From NCBI GenBank assembly GCA_018296565.1, contig GCA_018296565.1_3935.1: a stretch of 64,000 nt of DNA; one strand, written 5' to 3'. This document shows, one piece after another, positions 2,277 through 14,228 of this stretch (position 1 is the stretch's first letter; each line of letters starts with the position of its first letter). The position numbers and the translations under genes were made by a program. The notes under the pieces were generated by a model. It saw nothing but the letters and a program-made list of their open reading frames with translations. It was not told the DNA's origin and did not search any database. Source of the DNA: a phage.

Positions 2277-2293
2277 TTTCAGGAGATTGTTAA

Positions 2294-2641
2294 ATGACAT
2301 TTAAAGAGTTCTGTCAAGCTACTTTCATAATTGTTTTCTTAGTTGGGGCAGGTGTCTGGGGAGGATACTCTTACAGAGACTATCAAGTTGCTGAAACTGA
2401 GCTAAACAATCAAAAGCTCATAAGTGTTGCTAAAGATGCTTATCAGGAAGGATTAGTTACACTGAGCACCAATTACAAAAATGATTTGAAAGATGTGCTT
2501 GCTAAGAATAAGCACACAAAAGAGGTACTAACATATGAAAAAACTAAGCCAGAGTTTTATAATGTTTGTGTTACTGATAATTATGTCAGGGTGTTCAACG
2601 AACAAAGTGAACAGTACATTCAAAAACTCCCAAGTAAGTGA
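2294..2641 (+). CDS. membrane-anchored coiled-coil protein (i-spanin-like candidate)
   Basis: N-terminal hydrophobic segment FIIVFLVGAGVWGGY followed by charged helical region; the downstream lipoprotein gene starts inside this ORF in another frame. Confidence 0.45.
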   Translation: MTFKEFCQATFIIVFLVGAGVWGGYSYRDYQVAETELNNQKLISVAKDAYQEGLVTLSTNYKNDLKDVLAKNKHTKEVLTYEKTKPEFYNVCVTDNYVRVFNEQSEQYIQKLPSK

Positions 2642-2804
2642 GAGTGATAAGTACACTCAAGAAGAATCACGGTATATCATCAAAGGCAACACAGGCAGTG
2701 ATGTAGCAGCAGCACTTGAGTTCTATCGTGATGGCTTTTACCAGTGTACAATTAAAGCTAATAACCTTATTGACATGATTTTATTAGGGAATAAGCAGCA
2801 ATGA
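2535..2804 (+). CDS. small lipoprotein (o-spanin-like candidate)
   Basis: AAGAGG RBS 10 nt upstream; signal plus lipobox-like LIIMSGC; overlaps 3-prime end of the 2294 ORF. Confidence 0.45.
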   Translation: MKKLSQSFIMFVLLIIMSGCSTNKVNSTFKNSQVSESDKYTQEESRYIIKGNTGSDVAAALEFYRDGFYQCTIKANNLIDMILLGNKQQ

Positions 2805-3070
2805 CAGAGAATCAAGACACTTTCTATGTAGAAGGTTACTTACTGTTGCCACGACCAAAAGAAACTTATATGCGAATCGATTTCTTACCAACCATTATGG
2901 ATAATGTGATGTGTCATATCTTTATGCAAGGTGTCACAGCACAGCTTAAGCATGTTGGTAAAGATTGCAAAATAAAGGTTGACACTCATCCAGAAATCAA
3001 AGAGAATCACTACACATGGTTCTTACCAGATTCTAAAGAAATCTTAGCAGTTCTTAAAACGAGGAAGTAA
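2801..3070 (+). CDS. hypothetical protein
   Basis: ORF with ATG overlapping upstream stop. Confidence 0.5.
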   Translation: MTENQDTFYVEGYLLLPRPKETYMRIDFLPTIMDNVMCHIFMQGVTAQLKHVGKDCKIKVDTHPEIKENHYTWFLPDSKEILAVLKTRK

Positions 3071-3072
3071 CT

Positions 3073-3399
3073 ATGCAGATTAATGGAAGAGATTTTGTAG
3101 CCGTTTATTACGAGAAAGATAAAGAAGTTGGCGTAGCACAAGTATCTTATGGCAATGGTAAGTGGTTGTATGGGACAATCGCAGTAGTCGGAACAAGAAG
3201 TGATACAAAAACTTTTAAAGACTGTGTTGACCTTCTTGAAGAATCCATCCACAATCATTGGTGTCTGATATGGATGACTGATAACGAAGTGATGGAGCGT
3301 TTCAAAAAGATTGATATCAATATTGACAGTATTGAGCATGTTGATTTATATGAGCTAACTGAGAAGGTAAACTATGAAAGTAATACTAGCCAGAGATAA
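3073..3399 (+). CDS. hypothetical protein
   Basis: ORF, tightly packed operon. Confidence 0.5.
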   Translation: MQINGRDFVAVYYEKDKEVGVAQVSYGNGKWLYGTIAVVGTRSDTKTFKDCVDLLEESIHNHWCLIWMTDNEVMERFKKIDINIDSIEHVDLYELTEKVNYESNTSQR

Positions 3400-3794: not shown

Positions 3795-4580
3795 ATGGGT
3801 ATTGTAAAAATAATCAATGGTGATATCTTTGCCGCATTTGATAAAGGTAAGTTTGACATCATCGGTCACGGTTGCAACTGTATGAATTTAATGGGTGCAG
3901 GTATCGCTGACAAGATTTCTAAACTTTACCCAAAAGCATATGAGACCGATACAGAAGTTTATCTATATGCAGGTGGTATAGGACACAAACCCTGTGAAAA
4001 TTTACTGGGTAATTTCTCTGTAGCACGTTTAAAACAAGGTCGTATAGCTAACCTTTACACTCAGCTTAAGACTGGTAAAGATGCCCGATACAGTGCTTTA
4101 GAGTCATCTTTGAAACAGCTTAACAGATACTGTGAAGTCAATCAGTTGAAGAAAGTCGGGTTACCTATGATTGGTGCAGGTATCGGTGGGCTAGACCCTC
4201 AAGCCGTCACAGTTATCATTAATCAGGTGATGAAGAGTGTAGATGTTTATCTATATGTCTATGAAGGAGAGATGTACCACAAGTTACGCTCAGGTTGGAA
4301 GAACTACTGTGAACCAGAATACTTTGCAGGTGTAGTTGTGTTCACGGATAATGCAGTTACCCTCTTCAGACGAAGAAAAGGTAAGATACATCAAAGTAAC
4401 CCTCCGGTTGAAAAGATGTCTCTAAGTAACGCTCTAGTTACCCACCTGTCAAAGAGCAATCACAGAATTGCTGTAACATTTGGTAGTGATGCAGAAGCTT
4501 ATATCTATGCAAGAACTGATGAGGATATCGAGGCAATCTTCTCTTCACCAGAAGTTACCTTCTTAGACGCAAAGAACTAA
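3795..4580 (+). CDS. macrodomain protein (ADP-ribose processing, TARG1/DarG-like) with C-terminal extension
   Basis: INGDIF...DIIGHGCNCMNLMGAGIADKI and ...GLPMIGAGIGGLDPQ match macrodomain glycine-rich loops as in TARG1-type enzymes. Confidence 0.55.
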   Translation: MGIVKIINGDIFAAFDKGKFDIIGHGCNCMNLMGAGIADKISKLYPKAYETDTEVYLYAGGIGHKPCENLLGNFSVARLKQGRIANLYTQLKTGKDARYSALESSLKQLNRYCEVNQLKKVGLPMIGAGIGGLDPQAVTVIINQVMKSVDVYLYVYEGEMYHKLRSGWKNYCEPEYFAGVVVFTDNAVTLFRRRKGKIHQSNPPVEKMSLSNALVTHLSKSNHRIAVTFGSDAEAYIYARTDEDIEAIFSSPEVTFLDAKN

Positions 4581-4649
4581 GAAACTCTGTAGGATATTCA
4601 CAATAGCCTAAGCCTTTCTTATCTGGTAAATTTTTCAGGTAAGGAGGGC

Positions 4650-4832
4650 TTTTTCATTTCAGAATTGTGCAGGTAGAGTTCTGTAGAGAAATCTGTAGAG
4701 AGAATTTTGAACTCCAAAGAGAAAATTCATTTTCAAACTGTGCAGGTAATCTCCAAAGAGCTTTTTCATTTTCAAAACGTGCAGACTCCGCTCAGGTCGG
4801 GCAAGAAAAATCATTTTAGAATTGTGCAGGTA
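4650..4832 (+). repeat. four spaced copies of motif tttcatttYcaNaaYtgtgcaggta
   Basis: Copies at about 4650, 4726, 4761, 4808; a fifth partial copy follows the terminator at 2271. Confidence 0.6.
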
Positions 4833-5008
4833 GGTTTTTATAGACAGCCAGCCCAACACCTCTCCCCCTCTTACTCCCCCTCTCCCCAAAAGTCAATAGA
4901 AAAATTTGTAGCGGATTGAAAAATAATTCTTGATTTGCGTTCTGTTTTGTGGTAGTCGTGCGCACCCGTTTCATTACAGTTTTGCCAAAAATATTTTTAA
5001 AATTTTTA

Positions 5009-5037
5009 TTGACTCTTTGAACGTGGTTATCTAATAT
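5009..5037 (+). promoter_or_regulatory. sigma70-like promoter
   Basis: TTGACT, 17 nt, TAATAT, just upstream of first leader of the small-gene array. Confidence 0.55.
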
Positions 5038-5100
5038 TTACATCAACGGGGAGGGAATGACCTTCCCCACTAAATAAAATCCTAAACTGGAGATTCAAAA

Positions 5101-5289
5101 ATGGCATCAAGAAAAATTAAAGTTGGCGATGAGGTTAACATTAAGCACGAATACTCTTACAAAATGCTAACTATACGCTCTTATAAGGTTTATCAGGTGG
5201 AAGCTATCCACAAAGATAATACTTTTTCCTTAAAAGGGTATAGCGAACGTTTCCCTGCTGAACTCTTTGAGAAATGGAGCGCGAAATAA
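5101..5289 (+). CDS. hypothetical small protein (cassette gene, type B leader)
   Basis: Conserved leader catcaacggggagggaatgaccttcccc...ctggagattcaaaa then ATG. Confidence 0.65.
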   Translation: MASRKIKVGDEVNIKHEYSYKMLTIRSYKVYQVEAIHKDNTFSLKGYSERFPAELFEKWSAK

Positions 5290-5495
5290 TGCTTTACAGT
5301 CGTGAATTGATGGTTACAACTAACGTTAACACAAAGGTAAAACGTTTTTACATGCAAATTTGTGGCGTATGGTCCAGAATATCAGAAGCCGACTATTGCA
5401 ACTATGTAGAAACGGCTATTAATTCTAATTGCTACCTTACAAGAAACACTAAGAAATTTACAAGGCAGACAGCGATTTACTACTACGACAAATAA
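5289..5495 (+). CDS. hypothetical small protein
   Basis: ATG overlaps upstream stop (TAATG), GGAG 10 nt upstream; ORF track start 5274 is an alternative. Confidence 0.5.
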   Translation: MLYSRELMVTTNVNTKVKRFYMQICGVWSRISEADYCNYVETAINSNCYLTRNTKKFTRQTAIYYYDK

Positions 5496-5583
5496 AGTAC
5501 TTTACAGGGGGCTTAAAAGCTGATATCTTAAGCCCCAGATAAAGAGCTTTACTAAATTAACCCTTAAACTAGGAGATTCAAAA

Positions 5584-5964
5584 ATGGCTTATCGTGCACC
5601 GAAATTCATCAACAAAGACAACTTTCGCAACGCACTGGAGAAGTCACTTGATGAAAATTTTAAAGGTAACATTATCATTGTTCACGCATTCAATTTTAAG
5701 TATGATATTAACGGGAATAAAATCAACCATTACACGGCAACCATGATAGATGGTACTCTATCAAGTGAAAAAGCCATTTTACATGCACTTGCAGGACGTG
5801 GTAAAAACCTGATAAGATGCGATAAGAGACGTTATCAGGGTGGCGCATATGGTTATGATGATGCTGTTTATCATCTTGAAAATATGGGCTATTCAGTGGA
5901 AAAAGCTGGAGTGTCTCAAATAATCGGCAGTGACGGCTATGTGACAATTTTCAAAATTAACTGA
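5584..5964 (+). CDS. hypothetical small protein (cassette gene, type A leader)
   Basis: Preceded by ggggcttaaaag...taagcccc hairpin and ctaggagattcaaaa RBS block. Confidence 0.65.
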   Translation: MAYRAPKFINKDNFRNALEKSLDENFKGNIIIVHAFNFKYDINGNKINHYTATMIDGTLSSEKAILHALAGRGKNLIRCDKRRYQGGAYGYDDAVYHLENMGYSVEKAGVSQIIGSDGYVTIFKIN

Positions 5965-6053
5965 TAAAGTACTTTACAAGGGGCTTATAGTTCGATAAAG
6001 TAAGCCCCAGATAAAGAGCTTTACCACTAAATCCTAAATTGGAGAACTTAAAA

Positions 6054-6347
6054 ATGGCTATTATCAAAAACGTTGTAATTACTGCAAAGACTCGTGATGA
6101 CGCTCGCGTTATGGCTAAAAAGTTATGCGGGAAAGTGGTTGACAATGGAAAACAATCTGCTGTAAGGTGGGGCGTGAAGGTTGATAAACAGTTGAAGTTA
6201 AAAAATTCACCGATAAACCTTTTTACATGTGTAAACACTATCGGGAAGACAAATGTATACACAAAAAAGGCATACATTAGACGCGTAGCATTAACATCCC
6301 CCATTCGTACAATGAGAAGTTACGCAAAGCTGAAAATTAACAAATAA
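6054..6347 (+). CDS. hypothetical small protein (cassette gene, type A leader)
   Basis: ATG at 6054 directly after conserved leader; ORF-track start 6039 is TTG inside the leader. Confidence 0.6.
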   Translation: MAIIKNVVITAKTRDDARVMAKKLCGKVVDNGKQSAVRWGVKVDKQLKLKNSPINLFTCVNTIGKTNVYTKKAYIRRVALTSPIRTMRSYAKLKINK

Positions 6348-6432
6348 AGTACTTTACAAGGGGCTTAAAAGTTGATATCTTAAGCCCCAGATAAAGAGCT
6401 TTACCACTAAATCCTAAACTGGAGATTCAAAA

Positions 6433-6945
6433 ATGAAAACTGTAGACGCTACCTTTGAAGTTGTAAAAGAAAAATTCACAATTATCTATGAAGCGGTAAA
6501 TTGCTACGAGTCAAGCCATAATCTTGACAATTGGGAGTTTACAGACGCCCATCAGGGCGGCGTGACTATTAAAAACCCCAACTGTCAGCGTAACGATTTT
6601 AAATATGCAATCCCTTTAAATTATAGCCTTAAACAGCTTTCTAGTGACTATGCAAAACAAGGCCGGGAAAACCCATCAAAAGGGGCTTACACCAGCTTAC
6701 AGAAAGAACTAGAAAGAGATTTAGAGGCTTCAGAATACAACCTTGCCGCGAAAGTTGTGGATGCAAACGGTAACACGGTTTTAGAAAGTTTTTATCTTGG
6801 CTATGCTTTCGATTGGTGCTATCGTGACGGCGATGATTTAGAGGATAGACTAAAAGAAGAGGTGAATAATTCAGACGCAGAATCTGAAGTATTAGAACGT
6901 TTGGAATCGTTGAAAGACTCAGTGATGAATATCTTTAAGAACTAA
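6433..6945 (+). CDS. hypothetical acidic protein (cassette gene, type A leader)
   Basis: Conserved leader plus RBS; 170 aa. Confidence 0.65.
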   Translation: MKTVDATFEVVKEKFTIIYEAVNCYESSHNLDNWEFTDAHQGGVTIKNPNCQRNDFKYAIPLNYSLKQLSSDYAKQGRENPSKGAYTSLQKELERDLEASEYNLAAKVVDANGNTVLESFYLGYAFDWCYRDGDDLEDRLKEEVNNSDAESEVLERLESLKDSVMNIFKN

Positions 6946-7036
6946 ATAGATTTCTTTACACGGGGTTATCAAACTGGTATGATAGCCCCAGATAAAGAGA
7001 TTTATCAAATTAACCCTTAAACTAGGAGATTCAAAA

Positions 7037-7333
7037 ATGAAATTATCAAATAAAGTTAGGGAAAATCTAAGCAAGTTACTCAACAAAATTGATTTTATCG
7101 AGACCTCAAGAAATACTCATGAGGTTATGGAATGGTTACACGGCAAAATAAAAGGCCGTCGTGTAGTGATTTGCTTATGGAATAGTTGCAGGGAGTATAA
7201 AAAGTCTGTATTGCAAATTAATGTTTATGATGATACTTGTAAAAGTCCTGTTAAGTCTGAAAGTGATTTACTAGATTCTTATGAGATAACTGTAAATGGC
7301 AAAGTGTCACGTAAAGAGGAAGCACTATGTTAA
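7037..7333 (+). CDS. hypothetical small protein (cassette gene, variant type A leader)
   Basis: Leader hairpin ggggttatc...gatagcccc with compensatory changes. Confidence 0.6.
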   Translation: MKLSNKVRENLSKLLNKIDFIETSRNTHEVMEWLHGKIKGRRVVICLWNSCREYKKSVLQINVYDDTCKSPVKSESDLLDSYEITVNGKVSRKEEALC

Positions 7334-7659
7334 TGATGGGTATCACTGCAATCATTGCTATTATGGCGCTATATAAGGCGTACAGCGCCTACAATCTGGC
7401 AAGTAAGGCAATCACGCAACAGGTCAATAATAGCCTTGTAATGAGTTTTCTGGAGCGTTTAAGTGATGAACAAATAAAACGGTTAGAAATGAGCTTCAGA
7501 TTTCAATCAAAAACTTATCAAATCAGCGACATTTTCAAAGATAATTTTCAGCTTGTCGATGATTATAACTCTCTGATAAATGCTTTAAATATCAGTGACT
7601 TAAAAGACTATTACACTGTAATTGTCCAAGAACTGAACAAACGAAAAAATTTCTCTTGA
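7327..7659 (+). CDS. hypothetical protein with N-terminal hydrophobic segment
   Basis: MLMMGITAIIAIMALY hydrophobic N-terminus; overlaps upstream stop. Confidence 0.5.
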   Translation: MLMMGITAIIAIMALYKAYSAYNLASKAITQQVNNSLVMSFLERLSDEQIKRLEMSFRFQSKTYQISDIFKDNFQLVDDYNSLINALNISDLKDYYTVIVQELNKRKNFS

Positions 7660-7749
7660 TTTTAGTTTTAAAAACAAGTAAATTACTAATCAACGGGGAG
7701 GGAATGACCTTCCCCACTAAGTAAAGTCCTTAAACTAGGAGATTCAAAA

Positions 7750-8022
7750 ATGTACACTACTAACAACGGTCGCACCTTAAACGTAACCCTACGCCACTAT
7801 GTGAACGGTGTAATGCACTTCGAGGATTTACAAGCTGAACAGCACATTTTGGATTGGCAACTTGCAGGATTCCAAAAAACTGCTACCGGATACGGGAAAA
7901 AGATTCCAACTAGCTGGAAAGTATACTACGAAGGCCGTTTGCGTAGAATTTATCAAGATGTATGCGGCAATAGCGCATCAAGTTACGTCATAGTAAAAGG
8001 CAAAAAGCTGCATTTAGCATAA
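7750..8022 (+). CDS. hypothetical small protein (cassette gene, type B leader)
   Basis: Conserved leader plus RBS. Confidence 0.65.
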   Translation: MYTTNNGRTLNVTLRHYVNGVMHFEDLQAEQHILDWQLAGFQKTATGYGKKIPTSWKVYYEGRLRRIYQDVCGNSASSYVIVKGKKLHLA

Positions 8023-8107
8023 AGTACTTTACAAGGGGCTTATAGTTCGATAAAGTAAGCCCCAGATAAAGAGCTTTACCACTAAATCCTAAACTGGAGA
8101 TTCAAAA

Positions 8108-8512
8108 ATGGCTATTAATAATCGTGAGTTATCTATCTTAAAAGCACGTTTGACCGTCAACCGGATTAATGTTATCACATCATCAGCACCAGATGAAACA
8201 CTGCAAAACATTATCGGAAAGATTCAAAGCGTTATTTTAGACGTTGAAAACGTAAAAAATTCATTGGCTGACGTTGCAGCAGGTATCACACTAGACGGTG
8301 CGCAATATGAAATGTCCGACATGTTAGGCAAATCTAAGGTAATGAATAAAGAGTTAGATTTGAAAATGTTCCGATTTGCTGTTAAAGTGTGGCTATCTGT
8401 CGAGTATGATGCTAACTTTGCAATCGCTGACTTTTTCGCCACTTGGTTGCAGCGTAATTTGACTAATCATGACTTCCGCGATATCTGTGATGCAATTTAT
8501 GCAGAACTCTAA
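8108..8512 (+). CDS. hypothetical small protein (cassette gene, type A leader)
   Basis: Conserved leader plus RBS. Confidence 0.65.
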   Translation: MAINNRELSILKARLTVNRINVITSSAPDETLQNIIGKIQSVILDVENVKNSLADVAAGITLDGAQYEMSDMLGKSKVMNKELDLKMFRFAVKVWLSVEYDANFAIADFFATWLQRNLTNHDFRDICDAIYAEL

Positions 8513-8521
8513 AAAATTTTG

Positions 8522-8550
8522 TTGACACTGGTTTTTAGATAGATTAAATT
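8522..8550 (+). promoter_or_regulatory. sigma70-like promoter candidate
   Basis: TTGACA, 17 nt, TAAATT upstream of type B leader. Confidence 0.45.
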
Positions 8551-8613
8551 ACACATCAACGGGGAGGGAATGACCTTCCCCACTAAATAAAGTCCTAAAC
8601 TGGAGATTCTAAA

Positions 8614-8811
8614 ATGGCTATTATTAACGGCTTAACCATTGAAACTACACACATCAAAGATATCAAAGTTGGCGATATAGTCCTTTCCCACGGCGTAGAA
8701 AAAACTGTCACTGCAAAGGATATCAAAGAGGATTCTTTCATGGGTAGGACTCTCTTCGGTGATTCTTATTGCTTAGGTTATCTTGCAGTTTTAAAAGTTG
8801 TCAAAAATTAA
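8614..8811 (+). CDS. hypothetical small protein (cassette gene, type B leader)
   Basis: Conserved leader plus RBS. Confidence 0.6.
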   Translation: MAIINGLTIETTHIKDIKVGDIVLSHGVEKTVTAKDIKEDSFMGRTLFGDSYCLGYLAVLKVVKN

Positions 8812-8902
8812 CAAATAAAGTACTTTACAAGGGGCTTAAAAGTTGATATCTTAAGCCCCAGATAAAGAGCTTTACACAGTCCTTAAACTAGGAGATTAAA
8901 AA

Positions 8903-9151
8903 ATGATGAACTATTTCAATATCCCTGATACCTGCCGACTATTGACACAAGAAGAAAACTTGGGTAAACCTTTTCTTTACCACATGCCAGACAACACACC
9001 AAAAACTTATAGTTACAATGTCAACCGTTTTACCGCATACGCTGCAAAGAACGGTTATAAGTTGGTCACTCAAAAAGTAATGCTGGTTACAACCGCTGAC
9101 GAGATTCCTACAGTTGCAGTTAAACTAATTTTCTCAAAAAAAGTTAAATAA
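8903..9151 (+). CDS. hypothetical small protein (cassette gene, type A leader)
   Basis: Conserved leader plus RBS. Confidence 0.6.
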   Translation: MMNYFNIPDTCRLLTQEENLGKPFLYHMPDNTPKTYSYNVNRFTAYAAKNGYKLVTQKVMLVTTADEIPTVAVKLIFSKKVK

Positions 9152-9236
9152 AGTACTTTACAAGGGGTTTATAGTTCGATAAAGTAAGCCCCAGATAAAG
9201 AGCTTTACCACTAAATCCTAAACTGGAGATTCAAAA

Positions 9237-9800
9237 ATGAAATGCTATCACGGCACTACTCTGAAAAACTTTGTAAACTTACTGAATGGTGGCGACAAGC
9301 CGGAAGGAATCTGGAACTGCTCCTACATGGATGATTGTTTCTACGTTTACCCAATGAACAAGGTTATCAAAACGGAATGTCTGGAAGATGAGGAAGATTC
9401 TTATATCCGTGAACGCTGCATTCAAAGCGCCTTAGAGTCTGGGCTTATTACGGCAGCTTTCCAAATGGAAACGCAGGAAGTGATTGTTATCGAAATGGAT
9501 ATCCCAGAGGAAGAACTTGAGGACGATTATTCTTGTGACAACATGAGCGAAATTGCCAGCTTTACCGGATACTTTGATAAGAATTGGATTATCGGCATAC
9601 ACTCGACGAAATTTAGTGCGATGTATGCACCTTTCTTTGTACCAGATGCAACTAACCGCAATTTAGGCTATGTTGACGATGATTTGTTAAGTATGGCGAA
9701 AATTGTACAGAATAGCGGTGACAGTTCCGTGTTTTGTGACTTGCTGGATAAAATCACGGCAAACATCACAGAGCGCAATTTAAAAGACTTTTTAGGTTAA
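9237..9800 (+). CDS. hypothetical acidic protein (cassette gene, type A leader)
   Basis: Conserved leader plus RBS; 187 aa. Confidence 0.65.
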   Translation: MKCYHGTTLKNFVNLLNGGDKPEGIWNCSYMDDCFYVYPMNKVIKTECLEDEEDSYIRERCIQSALESGLITAAFQMETQEVIVIEMDIPEEELEDDYSCDNMSEIASFTGYFDKNWIIGIHSTKFSAMYAPFFVPDATNRNLGYVDDDLLSMAKIVQNSGDSSVFCDLLDKITANITERNLKDFLG

Positions 9801-9863
9801 TCAGTACAAAGACACCAACTTCCAACTTAAGGCCCATACAGGGCCATTTAAAGGGCTTAAATC

Positions 9864-10097
9864 ATGCTTACAACCGTTTATCTTATCCTTTCTATTTGTA
9901 ATGGTCATTCATGTGATTTTAAAGGGCTTGAGGAGTTTACAGGGAGTAAAGAAAATGCTATTCAAGTTTGCCAGATAGCAAGACAAGACTATCCCGCCAG
10001 TGATGATATTCAATGCTACTTTAAGACAGAAGATGAAGACGGCGTCTATTTTGACAGTGTCGATGGTCAATATGAAATTATCATTGAAAAAGACTAG
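9864..10097 (+). CDS. hypothetical small protein
   Basis: ORF preceded by a different hairpin ggcccatacagggcc; no conserved leader. Confidence 0.5.
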   Translation: MLTTVYLILSICNGHSCDFKGLEEFTGSKENAIQVCQIARQDYPASDDIQCYFKTEDEDGVYFDSVDGQYEIIIEKD

Positions 10098-10187
10098 ACA
10101 AGCCTGATAAAAATCTGTAAATTGTCAATCAACGGGGAGGGAATGACCTTCCCCACTAAATAAAGTCCTAAACTGGAGATTCTAAAA

Positions 10188-10529
10188 ATGGCTTATGTAA
10201 CCGTAATTACCGATAAAGCTGGCGCATCTTGGTCAACTCAGGTCAGTGATAAGATGTCACCTATGCAGTGCCTAAAATACTTTGAACAGTGGAATAAAGG
10301 CGAGGACACAAGCCCCTTTCAAGTGATGCAGATTATCCATGTAGACAACGAAGGGAATAAAACGACGCTGAATAGTGAGTACTATGCAAGCCGTTTTGAA
10401 ACGAGAAGTAAAACAATGAAACTTTTACGTGAATCCGGTTATACCCATATCGCCGCGTTAATCTGGGATGACCTGCTAAAAAGTCAGCGTATCAGCTATG
10501 TAAAACCTGAAAAAATATTCATCAGTTAA
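10188..10529 (+). CDS. hypothetical small protein (cassette gene, type B leader)
   Basis: Conserved leader plus RBS. Confidence 0.65.
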   Translation: MAYVTVITDKAGASWSTQVSDKMSPMQCLKYFEQWNKGEDTSPFQVMQIIHVDNEGNKTTLNSEYYASRFETRSKTMKLLRESGYTHIAALIWDDLLKSQRISYVKPEKIFIS

Positions 10530-10561
10530 TCAATAACTTACAAAAAACTTTTAAAAAGATG

Positions 10562-10590
10562 TTGACAACCCCTCTTGACATTGGTAACTT
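10562..10590 (+). promoter_or_regulatory. sigma70-like promoter candidate (tandem TTGACA boxes)
   Basis: Two TTGACA hexamers; TAACTT 17 nt after the first. Confidence 0.35.
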
Positions 10591-10751
10591 TGTTCGAGGG
10601 GGTTTATCTAAAAGGGATTAACTTAAAAGATTCTTTATAGATAGATTTAAAAAATTGCTTGCAATCAGATATCAAAACAAGTAAATTACTCATCAACGGG
10701 GAGGCAATAACCTCCCTACTAAGTAAAGTCCTTAAACTAGGAGATTCTAAA

Positions 10752-11282
10752 ATGAACAAGTTCAAAGCTATCAACTATATTCGTTCAAATAATGTAATGG
10801 CTAAGCCTGTTAAAGATACCTATGAATTTCGTTGTAATGGGGTACACTTTGCAACCATTACCAAATCAGAAAACGGGGCTTATTACGTTCATCGTCGTAA
10901 TGTTGCAACCGTTGTAGTCTCTCACTTTATGCAAGCTGTCGCGGAACTTCTCCCGATGTTTTTAGGTCTTTATTTAGATGAGTGTAAAAACGTTCACAGC
11001 CACGTTAAAAACCTTTTAAATAGCTATAAAATGGCTTATGAACGTTCTATCAAGTCCTTAAACAAGTTTTACAACGCACCTAAAAATACTGTATCAATAG
11101 CCTATGCTGCAAATGGTGAGATGGTAAACTTATCCAATGTGGAAGAAATCAAGCTGCATGATTTACGCCCTAGCGGTTACTCTAAGACTCTCGGTGAAGG
11201 TTTAACGTTCAATATCAAGAACTTAGAGAAAACTTTAAAAGATATTGAAAAAGATATTGACGAGACAACCAAAAGTCTGTAA
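10752..11282 (+). CDS. hypothetical protein (cassette gene, variant type B leader)
   Basis: ATG at 10752 directly after leader; ORF-track start 10659 lies inside the leader. Confidence 0.6.
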   Translation: MNKFKAINYIRSNNVMAKPVKDTYEFRCNGVHFATITKSENGAYYVHRRNVATVVVSHFMQAVAELLPMFLGLYLDECKNVHSHVKNLLNSYKMAYERSIKSLNKFYNAPKNTVSIAYAANGEMVNLSNVEEIKLHDLRPSGYSKTLGEGLTFNIKNLEKTLKDIEKDIDETTKSL

Positions 11283-11347
11283 ATTGTCAATCAACGGGGA
11301 GGGAATGACCTTCCCCACTAAATAAAATCCTAAACTGGAGATTCAAA

Positions 11348-11611
11348 ATGGAACACGTCGAACTGACCACACTTTTACAAATTGCAACCGACAAAGAGGA
11401 TGTAGCATTATTCCATCGTATCGAGAGTGATTTGTTCAATGGTGAAATCATTAAAGAGTCTTACGAAGTTGTCGGATTCAAAGACGGTAAAGCGTTCGGA
11501 TTCTTTGACCTCGACAAAGGCAAAGCGGTTACAAAATATGATGTTTTATCTTGTGAGATTCTGACAAAATACAACGAAAAAAGACTTGCAACATACGCCA
11601 ATATGCAGTAA
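11348..11611 (+). CDS. hypothetical small protein (cassette gene, type B leader)
   Basis: Conserved leader plus RBS. Confidence 0.65.
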   Translation: MEHVELTTLLQIATDKEDVALFHRIESDLFNGEIIKESYEVVGFKDGKAFGFFDLDKGKAVTKYDVLSCEILTKYNEKRLATYANMQ

Positions 11612-11688
11612 ATTACTAATCAACGGGAGGGACAACCTCCCTACTAAGTAAAGTCCTTAAACTACTTCCTAAACTGGAGATTCTAAAA

Positions 11689-11937
11689 ATGGCAACTATC
11701 CGCGCAACTGTCAATGCTTATGGCTGTTATACTCTGGACGTTAAATTTGATATTAGTGGAACTGATGAGTGTTTTTCATTAGTGAAGACAGTTATCAAGC
11801 AAGTTATCCCAGATTATAACCCTACTGATGACTTCTGGAAAGATGCTGTAAAAGAGGCATTAAACGACGAGCATCACTATCATTACTGGGGTGACTTGAT
11901 TGTCTCACTGTACTACAATAAACAAGGTTACAACTAA
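11689..11937 (+). CDS. hypothetical small protein (cassette gene, variant type B leader)
   Basis: Conserved leader plus RBS. Confidence 0.6.
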   Translation: MATIRATVNAYGCYTLDVKFDISGTDECFSLVKTVIKQVIPDYNPTDDFWKDAVKEALNDEHHYHYWGDLIVSLYYNKQGYN

Positions 11938-11947
11938 TCGACGCAAC

Positions 11948-12000
11948 GGGGCTAAATAGCCCCAGATACCTGAAAAGCTCCTTCTCATAGGGGCTTTTTT
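11948..12000 (+). terminator. terminator-like hairpins with T-run ending the plus-strand small-gene array
   Basis: ggggctaaatagcccc hairpin, then ...ggggc followed by TTTTTT. Confidence 0.5.
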
Positions 12001-12027
12001 ACGTCTATGTAATAGCCTCTATACAAT

Positions 12028-12050
12028 CCCTTTCCTTTCCTTTCCTTTCC
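12028..12050. repeat. microsatellite (CTTTC)x4
   Basis: ccctttcctttcctttcctttcc. Confidence 0.8.
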
Positions 12051-12419
12051 AGAATCTATCCCACTAATTCGATAGAATCTATCTCATACCTTAAAAGCAA
12101 TAACTCTATAGTCTACTCTATAACCTCTTATCAAATCAACTTAAATAAAAGCCCATAACCCGAAAGGGAAGGGCAACCGTTTAAACGCTCTATAAAGCTC
12201 TATAACAGCCTTATCAACCTAACTTAAGGGATTGCATTAACTCACCCTAAAAAGCTCTTTATAAAGCTTCCTAGAGCCTTAAAAGAATCTTATAAGGGTG
12301 TAAGCTTTATCATCTCGTTAGCTATCTTGTGAATATCTAAAAAGGGCTTGTTATTGTCTTAAAAGTATGTTATATGGGCTTTAAAGTTACTTTGAAGTAG
12401 CTTAAAAGTTACGTAAATG

Positions 12420-13510
12420 CTAGCCCCCTTAACATTTTCTTAACAATTTCTTAACAAACCCTACATAGTTATGCTTTTAAGGCACTTGTTAGCAACTTGT
12501 TAGTCCCTTGTTAAATCTCTGTTAAGACCACGTAAAAGCCTTGTAAGAGTCTTTGACATAGCCTTTAAAGCCCCTGTAAAGCCCTATAAAGAGGTATCTG
12601 TACAGTTGGGGGGTAGATACTAGGAAGAGACTTAAAAGAGCTTACAAGGAGCTATAGAGAGCTTTTAAGAGGTATGTTTAAAGAATCACTAAGAAAGGAA
12701 AGGGAACGATAAGAAAAGAGATAGTGACCATGTTAATAGCTTGTTAAAAAGATTAAACACTTGTTAGAGACTTGTTAATTATCTTAACAAAATAACTCTT
12801 AAAAATTAACTTGTTAGCTCTTGTTAGCCATCTGTTAAGACTCTGTAAAGCCTATGTATCAACTGTTAAGAAACTGTTACGCTCTTGTTAGTTCTGTTGA
12901 GAATCTGTTAAGACCTTTGAAGAGATGTTAAGGAGATGTGAGAACTGTTAAGAGATTGTTAAGGATATTTTAAAATTTTGCAAAGTACTTGTAAGGGAGC
13001 TGTTAAGGGCTACCAAGCAGATATACATCTTCTACAGATATTTTTCAGTTCCTTCAAAGACCCTAAAAAATGACTTGATAGTCCTATTTTATAAAAATTT
13101 TAAAAATCTGAATAATTACCTATACAGTCTTTCTAAAATACAGGTAATAACAGGCTTATAAGATACCTTGTTAGTACCGTGTTAGACCTTGTGAGATAAG
13201 GTCTGTAAAGATATTCCTGTTAAGTTTGTTAAAACAGTCTATATAGAGGCTTAGTAATACCTAGTGAACACCTATAGAGAGTGTCATAGCTAACCTAGAG
13301 ATTAAGAGGTGTATAGGAGCTTCTAAGAGGGTATAGAAAGATGGTTAAGGTGATTGTATAGGTTGTTAAGAAGGCTTGTTAGAGGGCTTGTTAGAAGGGT
13401 TATACAGAGGGCTATTAAGACCACTAGATAGATACTAAGAGACTATATAGTACTATATAACTATATATAGAGAGTAAGCTTAAGAAGGTTGTTAAGAAGG
13501 GTAGATATTT
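12420..13510. repeat. dense array of short iterated motifs (YTGTTAR and reverse complement CTTAACA), non-coding
   Basis: Dozens of cttgttag / ctgttaag / gttgttaag copies, often 10-12 nt apart; no ORF of 60 aa or more in the block. Confidence 0.7.
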
Positions 13511-13604
13511 TGTTCACATATGATGGTGACCCAGAGGTTGGGACAACCGATAAAAATTTTATAAAAATTAAAAAGCCCCCAATTAAGGAGGCTCTTAAGA
13601 TATT

Positions 13605-14228
13605 TTAAATCAGTGTTTCCAGAACTGTTTTTAATGATGACTTGGTTGTCTGATAAAAATGAGTAAAGCCATTGTTGTTATCAAATACCTGCATCATGAT
13701 ATCATCTCCCTTGATTGGGTACACTCGGATATCATAGTGAAAACCATTAAAGACACAAGAGCCATTACAGAATGCACTAAAGTCATCAACTGAGATATAC
13801 TCTTCATGTCCTGTGATTTTTATACAAACACCTTTACTCGGTCTCTTAGGGTTGATATCTTCCATCACAGACATACTCTGTCCACCAAGAGATACCATAG
13901 TGACCACTTTACGGTTCTTCTGTCTAAAGTACATTTTAACTTTCTGCAAAGTGTCTTCATAGAACGGATAAGACCTTTCTACAAAGATTCCTTCAAGTGG
14001 CTCTTTACCATTTTCAACTTCTCTGTTATGCCGTACTGCAAAGATAATTTGTTCGAACCAGTCAAGATTTTCTTCGGAGAGTGCTTCCCGAACATCCTTC
14101 CAGTCAAGTACTAAGTAGTTACCTTCAACTTCTTTTAAGTTATCTTTTTCCATATCTATCACACCATTATCGTAAAACTTGATATTCTGGTACTGCGAAT
14201 TTATTACTATTGTTCTTGATGAGGTCAT
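13605..14228 (-). CDS. hypothetical protein
   Basis: ORF; first Met overlaps upstream gene by about 60 nt, so true start may be the internal Met near 14153. Confidence 0.5.
   Translation of the reverse strand: MTSSRTIVINSQYQNIKFYDNGVIDMEKDNLKEVEGNYLVLDWKDVREALSEENLDWFEQIIFAVRHNREVENGKEPLEGIFVERSYPFYEDTLQKVKMYFRQKNRKVVTMVSLGGQSMSVMEDINPKRPSKGVCIKITGHEEYISVDDFSAFCNGSCVFNGFHYDIRVYPIKGDDIMMQVFDNNNGFTHFYQTTKSSLKTVLETLI

Follow-up and report, generated by a model that had tools for sequence, protein, structure and literature searches.

Probable PeSL-type expression cassettes in the small-gene array of a Felix O1-like phage

Why should a run of small genes with nothing in common in their coding sequences be preceded, one after another, by nearly the same stretch of DNA? 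The question is raised by 17 consecutive plus-strand ORFs of 62–187 aa (5101–11937) in a felixounavirus (Felix O1-like, Ounavirinae), found in a window of 64,000 nt, which is the whole stretch of DNA analysed. An earlier, sequence-only reading of this DNA had proposed that unrelated small genes are swapped here behind a shared signal, as in the accessory islands of virulent phages. We consider it probable that the array is a hyperplastic region of early accessory genes in this Felix O1-like phage, made up of regulatory cassettes of the PeSL (promoter-early stem-loop) type.

The array and its two leader families

The 17 genes fall into 17 different PHROGs, all of unknown function, and blastp and blastn comparisons among the 17 coding regions revealed similarity between no pair. 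The sole functional hint comes from gp12, for which an ADP-ribosyltransferase-like fold is predicted, with residues H5, Y36 and E86 invariant or nearly so. The sequence-only reading had counted about 17 genes, 14 of them behind conserved leaders of two families, and this was borne out, with seven leaders each of type A and type B (Table 1). The other three genes are, as it had suggested, either coupled to the gene upstream or placed behind a different hairpin: genes 2 and 7 overlap their upstream neighbors, gene 2 being translationally coupled through an overlap with the gene 1 stop codon (TAATG), and gene 13 follows GGCCC-ATACA-GGGCC.

The leaders are restricted to the array. In the 64 kb window, the 21-mer TAAACTGGAGATTCAAAAATG has eight matches at ≤3 mismatches against 0.01 expected, the type A core six against 0.05 and the type B core five against 0, and none of the three has a match outside the array. 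Alignment of the leaders gave a mean pairwise identity of 84% over 88 nt within type A and 81% over 65 nt within type B, versus no detectable similarity among the coding regions, in agreement with the earlier impression that the leaders are far more alike than the genes.

The unit is slightly longer than the 5036–11937 first assigned to it, as it begins with the first promoter at 5009, which has an AT-rich tract upstream, and closes with a terminator at 11972–12000. On its left, the terminator that closes the preceding unit is the equivalent of Felix O1 t13, with identical sequence (Whichard 2010, Table 2). On its right, gene 17 is followed by an orphan half-leader, CAAC-GGGGCTAAATAGCCCC-AGATA, which has neither promoter nor Shine–Dalgarno (SD) sequence, and then by a canonical intrinsic terminator (AAAAGCTCC...GGGGCTTTTTT, ~11972–12000) in the position of Felix O1 t23. 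Flanked in this way by one strong promoter and a canonical terminator, the array could also be transcribed as one long early RNA.

Table 1. Features of the array region, all on the plus strand; z, folding z-score.
Feature	Coordinates	-35	-10	Hairpin	SD	Remarks
Type A leaders	5' of ATGs 5584, 6054, 6433, 7037, 8108, 8903, 9237					
Type B leaders	5' of ATGs 5101, 7750, 8614, 10188, 10752, 11348, 11689					
Intrinsic terminator	4610..4651					Terminator scan; closes upstream unit, left boundary of array region
Gene 1 leader, B	5009..5100	TTGACT 5009-5014	TAATAT 5032-5037	5048-5068	5089-5092	
Genes 1, 2	5101..5495					62 and 68 aa; gene 2 starts at 5289; phrog_15633, phrog_5293
Gene 3 leader, A	5492..5583	TTTACA 5501-5506	TATCTT 5524-5529	upper 5508-5536; lower-stem arms 5493-5504, 5540-5551	5572-5575	
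Gene 3	5584..5964					126 aa; phrog_4495
Gene 4 leader, A	5964..6053	5973-5978	TAAAGT 5996-6001	5980-6008	6041-6044	
Gene 4	6054..6347					97 aa; phrog_5089
Gene 5 leader, A	6344..6432	6353-6358	TATCTT 6376-6381, with TG	6360-6388	6421-6424	
Gene 5	6433..6945					170 aa, acidic; phrog_4190
Gene 6 leader, A	6946..7036	6955-6960	TATGAT 6978-6983, with TG	6962-6989		Variant stem GGGGTTATCA/TGATAGCCCC; z -5.8; lower stem paired at 13/13 positions, one compensatory G-C to U-A
Genes 6, 7	7037..7659					98 and 110 aa; coupled, gene 7 start 7327 overlaps gene 6 end
Gene 8 leader, B	7656..7749	TTGATT 7656-7661	TAAATT 7679-7684	7695-7715	7738-7741	
Gene 8	7750..8022					90 aa; phrog_3436
Gene 9 leader, A	8019..8107	8028-8033	TAAAGT 8051-8056	8035-8063; lower-stem arms 8020-8031, 8067-8078	8096-8099	z -4.5
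Gene 9	8108..8512					134 aa; phrog_4327
Gene 10 leader, B	8522..8613	TTGACA 8522-8527	TAAATT 8545-8550	8561-8581	8602-8605	Contains 39-bp repeat listed for Felix O1
Gene 10	8614..8811					65 aa; phrog_3623
Gene 11 leader, A	8815..8902	8824-8829	TATCTT 8847-8852	8831-8859	8891-8894	
Gene 11	8903..9151					82 aa; phrog_9030
Gene 12 leader, A	9148..9236	9157-9162	TAAAGT 9180-9185	9164-9192, with U.G pair	9225-9228	
Gene 12	9237..9800					187 aa; predicted ADP-ribosyltransferase-like fold
Spacer and gene 13	9801..10097			9831-9845		Gene 13, 77 aa, 9864-10097
Gene 14 leader, B	10095..10187	TAGACA 10095-10100	TAAATT 10118-10123	10134-10154	10175-10178	
Gene 14	10188..10529					113 aa; phrog_4318
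Extra non-coding stretch	10530..10658			CCCCTC...GAGGGG and a long AT-rich one		z -3.7
Gene 15 leader, B	10659..10751	TTGCAA 10659-10664	TAAATT 10682-10687	10698-10716	10740-10743	Variant stem GGGAGG/CCTCCC
Gene 15	10752..11282					176 aa; phrog_4725
Gene 16 leader, B	11257..11347	TTGACG 11257-11262	TAAATT 11280-11285	11296-11316	11337-11340	-35 within 3' end of gene 15
Gene 16	11348..11611					87 aa; phrog_7022
Gene 17 leader, B	11586..11688	TTGCAA 11586-11591	TAAATT 11609-11614	11625-11641	11676-11679	-35 within 3' end of gene 16; 3' module partly duplicated, CCTTAAACTA then CCTAAACTGGAG
Gene 17	11689..11937					82 aa, last array gene; phrog_4559
Orphan half-leader and terminator	11946..12000					z -4.9

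Predicted promoter and hairpin in the leaders

The leaders had been taken for a hairpin plus a ribosome-binding site. Both are present, but the promoter of sigma-70 type (17-nt spacer) predicted in each leader from pattern and conservation had been overlooked. In type A, it has the form TTTACA-N17-TAnnnT (7/7 leaders), and a GGGG...CCCC hairpin covers the spacer and the -10 element. In type B, it is TTGACA-like-N17-TAAATT, and the hairpin lies 10 nt past the -10, about 3 nt past the predicted transcription start. Four of the seven type B leaders passed a consensus scan (9 of 12 positions). The type B -35 sits in non-homologous upstream coding sequence, and a hexamer with at least 4/6 matches is found at exactly 17 nt in all seven (P ~1.5e-9). 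The 13 genomes compared contain 60 distinct type A leaders, in which the hexamer located 17 nt past TTTACA has T1 in 52, A2 in 53 and T6 in 55, its middle positions vary freely, and it is preceded by TGn in 27. Two loop bases, T24 and A25, do not vary among 37 distinct sequences. The TTTA of the type A -35 doubles as lower stem, and its conservation could therefore be partly structural. Together, pattern and conservation point to promoters for the host sigma-70 RNA polymerase. At its 3' end, every leader carries a shared ...CCTAAACTGGAGATTCAAAAATG module; the single conserved ending described before comes in three variants, CTGGAG (n = 8), CTAGGAG (n = 5) and TTGGAG (n = 1).

With its flanking TAAAGnnCTTTA arms, the type A hairpin makes up a bipartite hairpin of ~60 nt. 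Folding z-scores range from -3.4 to -5.8 for type A and from -1.9 to -3.0 for type B. Of 36 distinct type A hairpins, all but two retain a run of seven or more contiguous pairs; the pair types vary at depths 3, 5, 7, 8 and 9, and a U.G pair that is legal on the plus strand only is present in 20. Paired cells amount to 96.9% versus at most 61% with the register slid, and the lower stem shows covariation from G-C to U-A. Since the predicted transcript begins just 3' of the type A hairpin, at AGAUAAAG, this hairpin would exist only in read-through RNA. In SUSP2, leaders at 11028 and 11571 have a promoter and SD and no hairpin, which is therefore dispensable for expression. A terminator role is unsupported by canonical criteria, because a U tract is absent after all 14 leader hairpins in the array, and the terminator scan picks up none of them. 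The hairpins may be attenuators, RNA stabilizers or RNase III-type sites.

PeSL cassettes were described in T4-like phages, where the T4/PST promoter consensus is TTTACW-N17-TAYWAT and the GGGG...CCCC stems include G-T pairs (PMC2839356). The Felix O1-like leaders match them feature by feature. The array feature is real, and its cassettes are of a kind already known from T4-like phages, with a new member in a Felix O1-like phage. In the literature, no paper was found on PeSL-type cassettes in Felix O1-like phages, and the Felix O1 genome paper merely lists the repeats. By RT-PCR, Felix O1 ORFs 16 and 20–22 had their maximum at 5 min (PMC3185647), and ORFs 14, 17, 19 and 23 were placed at 25 min, the timing being coarse.

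Cassette turnover among relatives

Across 12 relatives from four genera, the gene order of the array is syntenic, and individual cassettes come and go. Leaders account for 20.7% of the array but hold 22 of 32 alignment break ends (P ~7e-9), and in 13 of 16 events the overlapping homology is the leader. The junctions differ in position, some involving the SD module, some the hairpin and some the whole leader, and the overlaps measure 29–126 bp. Gene 11 is lacking, through an A/A leader junction, in SUT_S920, Seyj1-1 and SeKF_63, and gene 16, through B/B junctions, in Felix O1, Seyj1-1 and P54. Gene 10 is missing from Felix O1, Sf13, SUSP2 and Michonne, and Michonne has one cassette in tandem duplicate. 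Orthologous genes may differ in leader type (A or B) from one genus to the next: the leader of gene 11 is type B in Sf13, SUSP2 and Michonne, and that of gene 14 is type A in Sf13 and Michonne. The 3' module is genus-specific and common to A and B leaders within one genome, which indicates concerted evolution. Cassettes are thus gained, lost and replaced, and leaders are swapped, by recombination within the repeated leaders, as the idea of genes exchanged behind a shared signal had implied.

Gene 5 is found in 12/12 relatives, and genes 12 and 13 co-occur in all that have either. Genes 6 and 7 stay paired in the 11 enterobacterial relatives; in Erwinia MM7, gene 6 is present and gene 7 was undetected. 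Gene 15 has matches almost solely in Ounavirinae-type records, and the genus includes alleles of it with just 44% identity. Of the 256 phage records with a match, a single one covers at least 80% of the array in one place. Promoter hexamers and stems are both conserved in the 12 relatives, where the stems show compensatory changes and G.U pairs possible on the plus strand only; the leaders are not the unconserved terminator remnants that the sequence-only reading had named as evidence against itself.

Other readings and the proposed cassette

The leaders might be RNA processing and translation signals, rather than promoters, on one polycistronic early transcript that runs from the 5009 promoter to the terminator at ~12000, although we regard this as unlikely. 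The upper stem, 3x3 internal loop and lower stem of type A (~20 bp) would be cut by host RNase III, which would yield a protective 3' hairpin on the upstream message and a downstream 5' end at ~AGAUAAAG. RNase III cleavage is known from the T7 early RNA sites R0.3 to R1.3. Type A does form a long interrupted duplex (z -3.4 to -5.8), the compensatory changes in both stems, with wobble pairs legal on one strand only, suggest a function at the RNA level, and the array begins with a strong promoter, preceded by an AT-rich tract, and ends with a canonical terminator. However, processing leaves unexplained the invariant loop T and A, the TAnnnT exactly 17 nt from TTTACA and the type B -35 hexamers kept independently inside unrelated coding sequence. 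The type B stems, with 6–8 pairs, are too short for RNase III, and SUSP2 has leaders that lack a hairpin. If the cut fell on the 3' side of the internal loop, the resulting 5' end would coincide with the predicted transcription start, and the promoter and processing models are therefore not mutually exclusive.

It is very unlikely that type A leaders are folded-DNA recombination sites similar to integron attC, at which a phage recombinase or a structure-specific nuclease dedicated to the task would excise and insert cassettes, with promoter and SD as secondary passengers. Such sites would fit an imperfect nested inverted repeat of ~60 nt between small orphan-gene cassettes, its attC-like strand asymmetry and the gain and loss of cassettes at the leaders, and the PeSL authors speculated that GGGG...CCCC is a protein target (PMC2839356). 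The scattered junctions, with their 29–126 bp overlaps, nevertheless indicate homologous recombination with no fixed crossover point, and type B leaders and A/B hybrids also recombine. The annotation of SeKF_63, a fully annotated relative, names no integrase or site-specific recombinase, only HNH endonucleases, one exonuclease and one ligase, and attC-type core sites were not seen on reading through the sequence. There is similarly little probability that two palindromic type A 12-mers, TAAAGTACTTTA overlapping the -35 and TAAAGAGCTTTA at ~+4 to +15, are operators through which a dimeric phage regulator shuts off the early promoters late. Each 12-mer is a palindrome in itself, the pair flanks the promoter core in 7/7 type A leaders, and one relative has a protein annotated as "transcriptional regulator", but type B leaders lack both 12-mers, and variant 12-mers (with T for G upstream and A for C downstream) lose their own symmetry and keep their mutual complementarity, which favors the hairpin. 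It is hardly credible that the hairpins represent ordinary rho-independent terminators, intact or as remnants, and that the leaders are alike only through shared ancestry. Records KT184313-KT184316 (KhF1-3) do annotate type B hairpins as terminators, but place them on the strand that does not encode the genes; all 14 hairpins lack a U tract and go undetected in the terminator scan, and the conservation includes promoter hexamers and SD and spans four genera. The terminator reading is contradicted by these features.

In the PeSL-type cassette that we propose, the stop codon of the upstream gene is followed by a predicted promoter, a stem-loop rich in GC (GGGG...CCCC), a 5' UTR that is A-rich and unstructured and has a GGAG SD 7–9 nt ahead of the ATG, and the small gene. 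Every small gene would be transcribed and translated early, at a high level and independently. The hairpins may attenuate read-through or protect mRNA ends, in which case type A would protect the 3' end of the upstream message and type B the 5' end of the message made from the cassette itself. The ~90-bp repeats would presumably serve as portable homology for the general recombination machinery of the phage, and shuffling at these repeats would leave the genes and their expression unbroken.

The array and its surroundings

A megablast search of 5036-11937 against the phage collection matched 256 records, nearly all of them Felix O1-like phages of Escherichia, Salmonella, Shigella and Citrobacter. 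The best matches covered 80-81% of the query at 93-95% identity, and a single record out of the 256 covered at least 80% of the array in one place. The identity of these matches and their partial coverage place the window in Felixounavirus, with a set of small genes that is almost unique among sequenced relatives.

The array consists of 17 consecutive open reading frames on the + strand, encoding proteins of 62-187 aa. Fourteen start behind a conserved leader, which is of type A in seven cases and of type B in the other seven. The start of gene 2 overlaps the stop codon of gene 1 (TAATG), that of gene 7 overlaps the end of gene 6, and gene 13 lies behind a different small hairpin. An array of about 17 small genes, 14 of them behind leaders of two families, had been proposed in the sequence-only reading and was recovered here. 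So was its proposal that the leaders are far more alike than the coding regions: leader-to-leader identity within the genome is 81-84% on average, and blastp and blastn comparisons among the 17 coding regions found no similarity between any pair. The leader motifs occur far above chance and are absent from the rest of the 64 kb window. When orthologous cassettes are compared across genera, leaders are not always more conserved than genes, partly because leader types have been swapped.

Coordinates of the array, its neighbours and the features compared between relatives (window positions unless another genome is named)
Feature	Position	Remark
Macro-domain gene	3795-4580	just upstream of the array
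Terminator hairpin	4610-4651	T-rich tail
Repeat region	4654-4890	four copies of a ~35-nt repeat, then a C-rich tract
First array promoter	5009
Array ORFs	5101-11937	17 genes
Type A leader ATGs	5584, 6054, 6433, 7037, 8108, 8903, 9237
Type B leader ATGs	5101, 7750, 8614, 10188, 10752, 11348, 11689
Gene 2 start	5289
Gene 7 start	7327
Gene 12	9237-9800	encodes gp12
Non-coding stretch before gene 15	10530-10658	two hairpins, z-score -3.7
Gene 15	10752-11282
Gene 17	11689-11937
Gap without ORF of at least 50 aa	11940-13600	~1.65 kb
Orphan half-leader	11946-11970	directly before a terminator
Terminator hairpin	~11972-12000	T-rich tail
YTGTTAR cluster	12440-13495	26 of the 100 matches in the window
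First minus-strand gene	13605-14228
Felix O1 junctions	5586|6346; 8619|10128; 11351|11608	A/A, 90 bp shared; B/B, 68 bp; B/B, 75 bp
KhF3 junction	10191|11244	B/B, 108 bp
SUSP2 leaders (L010, fetched sequence)	10990-11030, 11530-11570	hairpin lost or down to half a stem
Michonne tandem duplicate (L012, fetched sequence)	2282-3140	leaders identical at 2282/2712 and 2629/3059

The 17 proteins fall into 17 different PHROGs, all of unknown function. None of them has a Pfam match, and a PDB sequence search with gp3, gp5, gp9, gp12 and gp15 gave no match. An AlphaFold model of gp12 (187 aa), built from 17 sequences, reached a pLDDT of 75 and a pTM of 0.76, and structure comparison of this predicted model identified the fold of an ADP-ribosyltransferase (ART). 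The invariant or almost invariant residues H5, Y36 and E86, candidates for a catalytic triad of the H-Y-E kind (the alternative in this fold being R-S-E), map to predicted strands 1, 2 and 3, as placed by the model itself rather than by superposition on a known enzyme. With moderate confidence, gp12 is thus predicted to have an ADP-ribosyltransferase-like fold, an assignment of fold and not of activity. The gene just upstream of the array encodes a macro domain, and NAD salvage enzymes are encoded by relatives. The gp12 homologs that carry a source name come from Ounavirinae phages, except for one record labelled Escherichia coli, and the records matched by gp15 are nearly all of Ounavirinae type; this distribution gives no sign of exchange with other phage families.

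Several non-coding regions lie within or beside the array. The repeats upstream (...TCATTTYNRAAYTGTGCAGGTAG..., followed by the C-rich tract CACCTCTCCCCCTCTTACTCCCCCTCTCCCC) lie between a terminator and the first array promoter. The stretch before gene 15 contains CCCCTC(N20)GAGGGG, which overlaps a TTGACA, and a long AT-rich hairpin, and is conserved as a gap in relatives. Downstream of the array, the gap that extends to the first minus-strand gene is densely filled with copies of the 7-mer YTGTTAR; 23 of the 26 copies in the cluster are on the + strand, and many are spaced 10-11 nt apart. The gap is also gene-free in Sf13 and nearly so in Michonne (one annotated 66-aa ORF), and several relatives’ GenBank records start or end beside it. 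The gap may serve as an iteron, origin or packaging region. Two oddities in the records of relatives look like annotation errors: PV390658.1 (vB_EcoM_P54, 88 kb, Felix O1-like) is filed under Straboviridae/Tequatrovirus, and in KT184313-KT184316 (KhF1-3, XTG1) type B hairpins carry a rho-independent terminator annotation, placed on the strand that does not encode the genes.

Promoters and stem-loops in the leaders

Homologous arrays were fetched from 12 relatives in four genera: the Felixounavirus phages Felix O1, KhF3, EF202P1, SUT_S920, Seyj1-1, P54, ECML-1 and SeKF_63, Mooglevirus Sf13 and Michonne (a Citrobacter phage), Suspvirus SUSP2 and Kolesnikvirus Erwinia phage MM7. By blastn, the type A leader is found in 289 phage records at 1446 places, including 29 Erwinia phages, and the type B leader in 252 records at 1170 places. 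The genome of phiEa21-4 reportedly contains 24 copies of a precisely conserved terminator, possibly a different repeat. A permissive Rfam scan of 4000-14000 assigned no family to the leaders; its only match, Phe_leader at 13566-13626, is at chance level.

The leaders had been described as a hairpin plus a ribosome-binding site. Both elements are present, but that description missed a sigma-70-like promoter (-35, a spacer of about 17 nt, -10) that was found in all 14. In type A, the stop codon of the upstream gene sits within ATAAAGTAC and is followed by TAAAGTAC-TTTACA, 17 nt and then TATCTT, TAAAGT or TATGAT, and the hairpin GGGGCTTA...TAAGCCCC spans the spacer and the -10; a consensus promoter scan detects all seven. 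In type B, exactly 17 nt separate a TTGACA-like hexamer from TAAATT or TAATAT, and the hairpin GGGGAGGGAATGACCTTCCCC begins 10 nt after the -10. The type B -35 is not part of the repeated block but falls within the non-homologous 3' ends of the upstream genes, and at least four of the six TTGACA positions are found at exactly 17 nt in 7/7 leaders (background 5.5% per hexamer, ~1.5e-9). Both types have the common 3' end ...CCTAAACTGGAGATTCAAAAATG, with GGAG 7-9 nt before the ATG in 14/14.

Across 13 genomes, 60 + 60 distinct leaders retain TAnnnT and the TTTACA or TTGACA-like hexamers. In the hexamer 17 nt past TTTACA, the distinct type A leaders have T1 in 52/60, A2 in 53/60 and T6 in 55/60, the middle positions being free, and 27/60 have a TGn extended -10. 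An alignment of 37 distinct promoter-hairpin segments shows T24 and A25 of the loop to be invariant and their neighbours variable. The stems, of 7-12 pairs, show compensatory changes as well as wobble pairs that exist on the + strand only. At least seven contiguous pairs are kept in 34/36 distinct type A hairpins, while the type of pair varies at depths 3 (G-C to U-A in Erwinia), 5, 7, 8 and 9; a U.G pair, which is an A.C mismatch on the other strand, occurs in 20 of the 36. Paired cells make up 96.9% of the alignment, against at most 61% when the register is slid. Type B stems differ by genus (GGGGAGG/CCTTCCCC, GGGAGG/CCTCCC, GGGGC/GCCCC, GGGC/GCCC, GGGGAAG/CTTCCCC) at a constant distance from the -10. 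Judged from these patterns of sequence variation, promoter and stem are both under selection. Since the hairpins are strand-asymmetric, they more likely function as + strand RNA, or as single-stranded + strand DNA, than as a double-stranded cruciform.

When whole type A leaders are folded, two 12-mers, TAAAGTACTTTA, which overlaps the -35, and TAAAGAGCTTTA, which comes after the hairpin, pair with each other. The result is a bipartite fold in which 11-13 pairs form the lower stem and nine the upper, with a 3x3 internal loop between them (z-scores -3.4 to -5.8). Each 12-mer has a symmetry of its own, so that the two could also be read as palindromic operators. At position 6 of the lower stem, however, G-C is found in 19/28 and U-A in 5/28 distinct combinations, which represent few independent events, and these changes break the symmetry of each 12-mer while keeping the complementarity between both. 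This covariation favors the hairpin, within the limits of so few events, and the operator reading is down-weighted.

The hairpins were also considered as intrinsic (rho-independent) terminators. None of the 14 has a U tract, their tails being AGATAAAG or ACTAAATAAAG, and a terminator scan detects none, so they are not canonical terminators; the two hairpins that flank the array do carry a T-rich tail. Nor do the leaders look like unremarkable terminator remnants, since they are conserved across four genera. The equivalent stem-loop of RB49 caused strong attenuation in a reporter (PMC2839356).

If initiation occurs at the usual distance of 6-8 nt from the -10, the predicted 5' end of a type A transcript is at AGAUAAAG, immediately 3' of the hairpin, and a type B transcript would carry its hairpin about 3 nt from its own 5' end. 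A 5'-terminal stem-loop within a few nt of the 5' end is a known mRNA stabilizer in E. coli, and the type B hairpin would fit such a role. The bipartite hairpin of type A is reminiscent of the RNase III sites in the early region of T7. T7 has strong host-RNAP promoters at the start of that region only, followed by RNase III sites between the early genes. Both phages have a run of small, mostly dispensable early genes with conserved hairpins between them, and type A shares with the T7 sites an upper stem, an internal loop and a lower stem, about 20 bp in total. As a fold, type A also has the form of an RNase III site (about two helical turns with an internal loop, between cistrons) with its 9 + 11 pairs and 3x3 loop, whereas type B stems are too short. 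Unlike T7, a promoter-like site is present in every leader here, and the likeness of type A is one of fold only.

An RNase III-type cut at the type A internal loop would generate the same 5' end as the embedded promoter. The same ~60 nt might then serve as a host-polymerase promoter in DNA and as an RNase III-type or 3'-protection site in read-through RNA, each cassette giving an identical monocistronic mRNA from its own promoter or from upstream. Such dual coding, or else an exchange of cassettes driven by a protein, is considered unlikely. Two SUSP2 leaders have a good predicted promoter (TTGCAA-N17-TATAGT) and the shared SD module while their hairpin is lost or down to half a stem, so that the hairpin would not be needed for expression as such.

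Gain, loss and exchange of cassettes

Gene order is syntenic between relatives, and cassettes are gained or lost. Felix O1 is without window genes 1, 3, 4, 10-13 and 16, KhF3 without genes 14 and 15, and SUT_S920 without genes 1, 2, 11, 16 and 17, while P54 and Seyj1-1 have extra small cassettes. At the junctions, the leader is the sequence common to both flanking alignments; SUT_S920 and ECML-1 have a B/A hybrid formed via the shared SD module (29-37 bp). Of the 32 break ends, 22 are strictly within leaders, although leaders make up 20.7% of the array (binomial P ~7e-9), and the leader is the overlapping homology in 13/16 events. The idea that unrelated small genes are swapped behind a shared signal is supported by the comparison of related genomes proposed along with it: in the 12 genomes sampled, cassette gain and loss map to the leaders.

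The leaders themselves have also been exchanged. Gene 11 has a type A leader here and a type B leader in Sf13, SUSP2 and Michonne, and gene 14 is type B here and type A in Sf13 and Michonne. The 3' module (CACTAAATCCTAAACTGGAGATTC here, CAACAATCCTAAACTGGAGAATC in Mooglevirus, CAACCCTTATAAAGGAA in the Erwinia phage) is genus-specific and common to A and B leaders within a genome, which indicates concerted evolution by repeated exchange between leaders. Genes 15 and 17 have very divergent alleles within the genus: gp15 is 44% identical in SUT_S720 and gp17 is 65% identical in Felix O1. For the adjoining cassettes the figure is about 90%, a contrast that points to replacement of alleles and not to gradual drift. 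In Michonne, one cassette is present as a tandem duplicate with two 258-nt genes; its junction, ...CTAAAATG|CTTTACA..., fuses the last part of one leader to the first part of another.

How the exchange proceeds can be judged from the junctions, whose positions vary along the leaders. This fits homologous recombination and not a fixed site-specific crossover. The alternative is that a phage protein recognizes the folded element and promotes cassette exchange, which would amount to an integron-like system in a virulent phage. As in integrons, small and mostly unknown genes lie between imperfect inverted repeats that fold on one strand, and cassettes are gained or lost at the repeats; Arbiol et al. 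made the same comparison for PeSLs (promoter-early stem-loops), the regulatory cassettes of T4-like phages (PMC2839356). However, the complete annotation of one relative, SeKF_63, includes no recombinase, and specifically no IntI-type tyrosine recombinase or other integrase, anywhere in its genome, and no attC cores (RYYYAAC/GTTRRRY) were seen at the leader boundaries on reading the window sequence. Every cassette here also has its own promoter and SD, and the junctions are spread along the repeat, as in homologous recombination. A protein-catalyzed, integron-like exchange therefore has little support.

The lambdoid morons are likewise autonomous units, each with a promoter, a gene and a (possible) terminator, that were added to a phage genome. 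Morons, however, are not flanked by conserved repeats, and their entry is ascribed to illegitimate recombination, whereas here the conserved regulatory unit is itself the substrate for recombination.

Relation to the PeSLs of T4-like phages

PeSLs have been described in RB49/phi1, T4/PST and KVP40/nt-1 (PMC2839356, Arbiol et al. 2010; PMC4122927, Comeau et al. 2014), and in the literature so far only for T4-like phages. A PeSL runs from the upstream stop codon in AT-rich sequence through a sigma-70-like promoter and stem-loop to an SD and ATG; the stem-loops are often polyG...polyC with G-T pairs and lie between -35 and -10, over the -10 or after it (PMC2839356). PeSLs cluster upstream of orphan genes in hyperplastic regions, where they mediate indels between close relatives (PMC2839356). 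In RB49/phi1, experiments demonstrated promoter and attenuator activity and excised mini-circles, and it is in these phages only that promoter activity and stem-loop attenuation were measured with reporters (PMC2839356).

The leaders share the whole of this architecture, from an upstream stop codon in AT-rich sequence to the SD and ATG. Their promoters are of sigma-70 type with a 17-nt spacer, and type A is close to the T4/PST consensus TTTACW-N17-TAYWAT (PMC4122927). The stem-loops are GC-rich (GGGG...CCCC) and include G-T pairs; in type A they are placed as in PeSLs, between -35 and -10 or over the -10, and type B, whose hairpin lies about 3 nt past the predicted start, comes nearest to the published subclass located after the -10 and just before the start. 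The elements lie close together in a hyperplastic region, ahead of small orphan genes, and indels between close relatives map to them. Degraded elements, the “1/2 PeSLs” of T4-like phages, also have a counterpart in the orphan half-leader that follows the array, which resembles them (PMC4122927). It reads CAAC-GGGGCTAAATAGCCCC-AGATA, a type B 5' flank joined to a type A 3' flank, without promoter or SD.

The differences are that the host is a Felix O1-like myovirus (Ounavirinae) and not a T4-like phage, that there are just two sharply defined families with one genus-specific 3' module in common, that type A adds a covarying lower stem to make a ~60-nt bipartite hairpin, and that 14 elements stand in one array as opposed to about 50 dispersed copies. 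All features that define PeSLs at the level of sequence (promoter, stem-loop, intergenic unit, hyperplastic clustering and indel junctions) are found here, and the array is best classified as a system of PeSL-type cassettes, both regulatory and recombinational, in a new phage group. A literature search found no PeSL-type description in Felix O1-like phages and none linking the Felix O1 repeats to PeSLs.

The Felix O1 genome paper listed direct repeats of 57 bp (genes 15/16 and 19/20) and 39 bp (genes 18/19 and 20/21) without interpretation, proposed five promoters genome-wide, none of them in the array, and called the organization of transcription unknown; RT-PCR detected transcription of the array genes, which peaked at 5 min for ORFs 16 and 20-22 (PMC3185647). 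The leaders would account for these repeats, and the predicted promoters would answer part of the question of transcription organization.

If this assignment is true, the principle of PeSLs, repeated regulatory cassettes that both express and mobilize accessory genes, extends from T4-like phages to the unrelated virulent myoviruses of the Ounavirinae. The presence of the leaders in about 290 records of the phage collection points either to more than one origin of the arrangement or to wide sharing of it. As repeats of about 90 bp, the leaders are likely break points in assemblies. They would also offer predicted strong early expression units and safe insertion points for engineered Felix O1-like therapeutic or biocontrol phages, and they mark a flexible gene pool that is the likeliest place for host-takeover or anti-defense functions.
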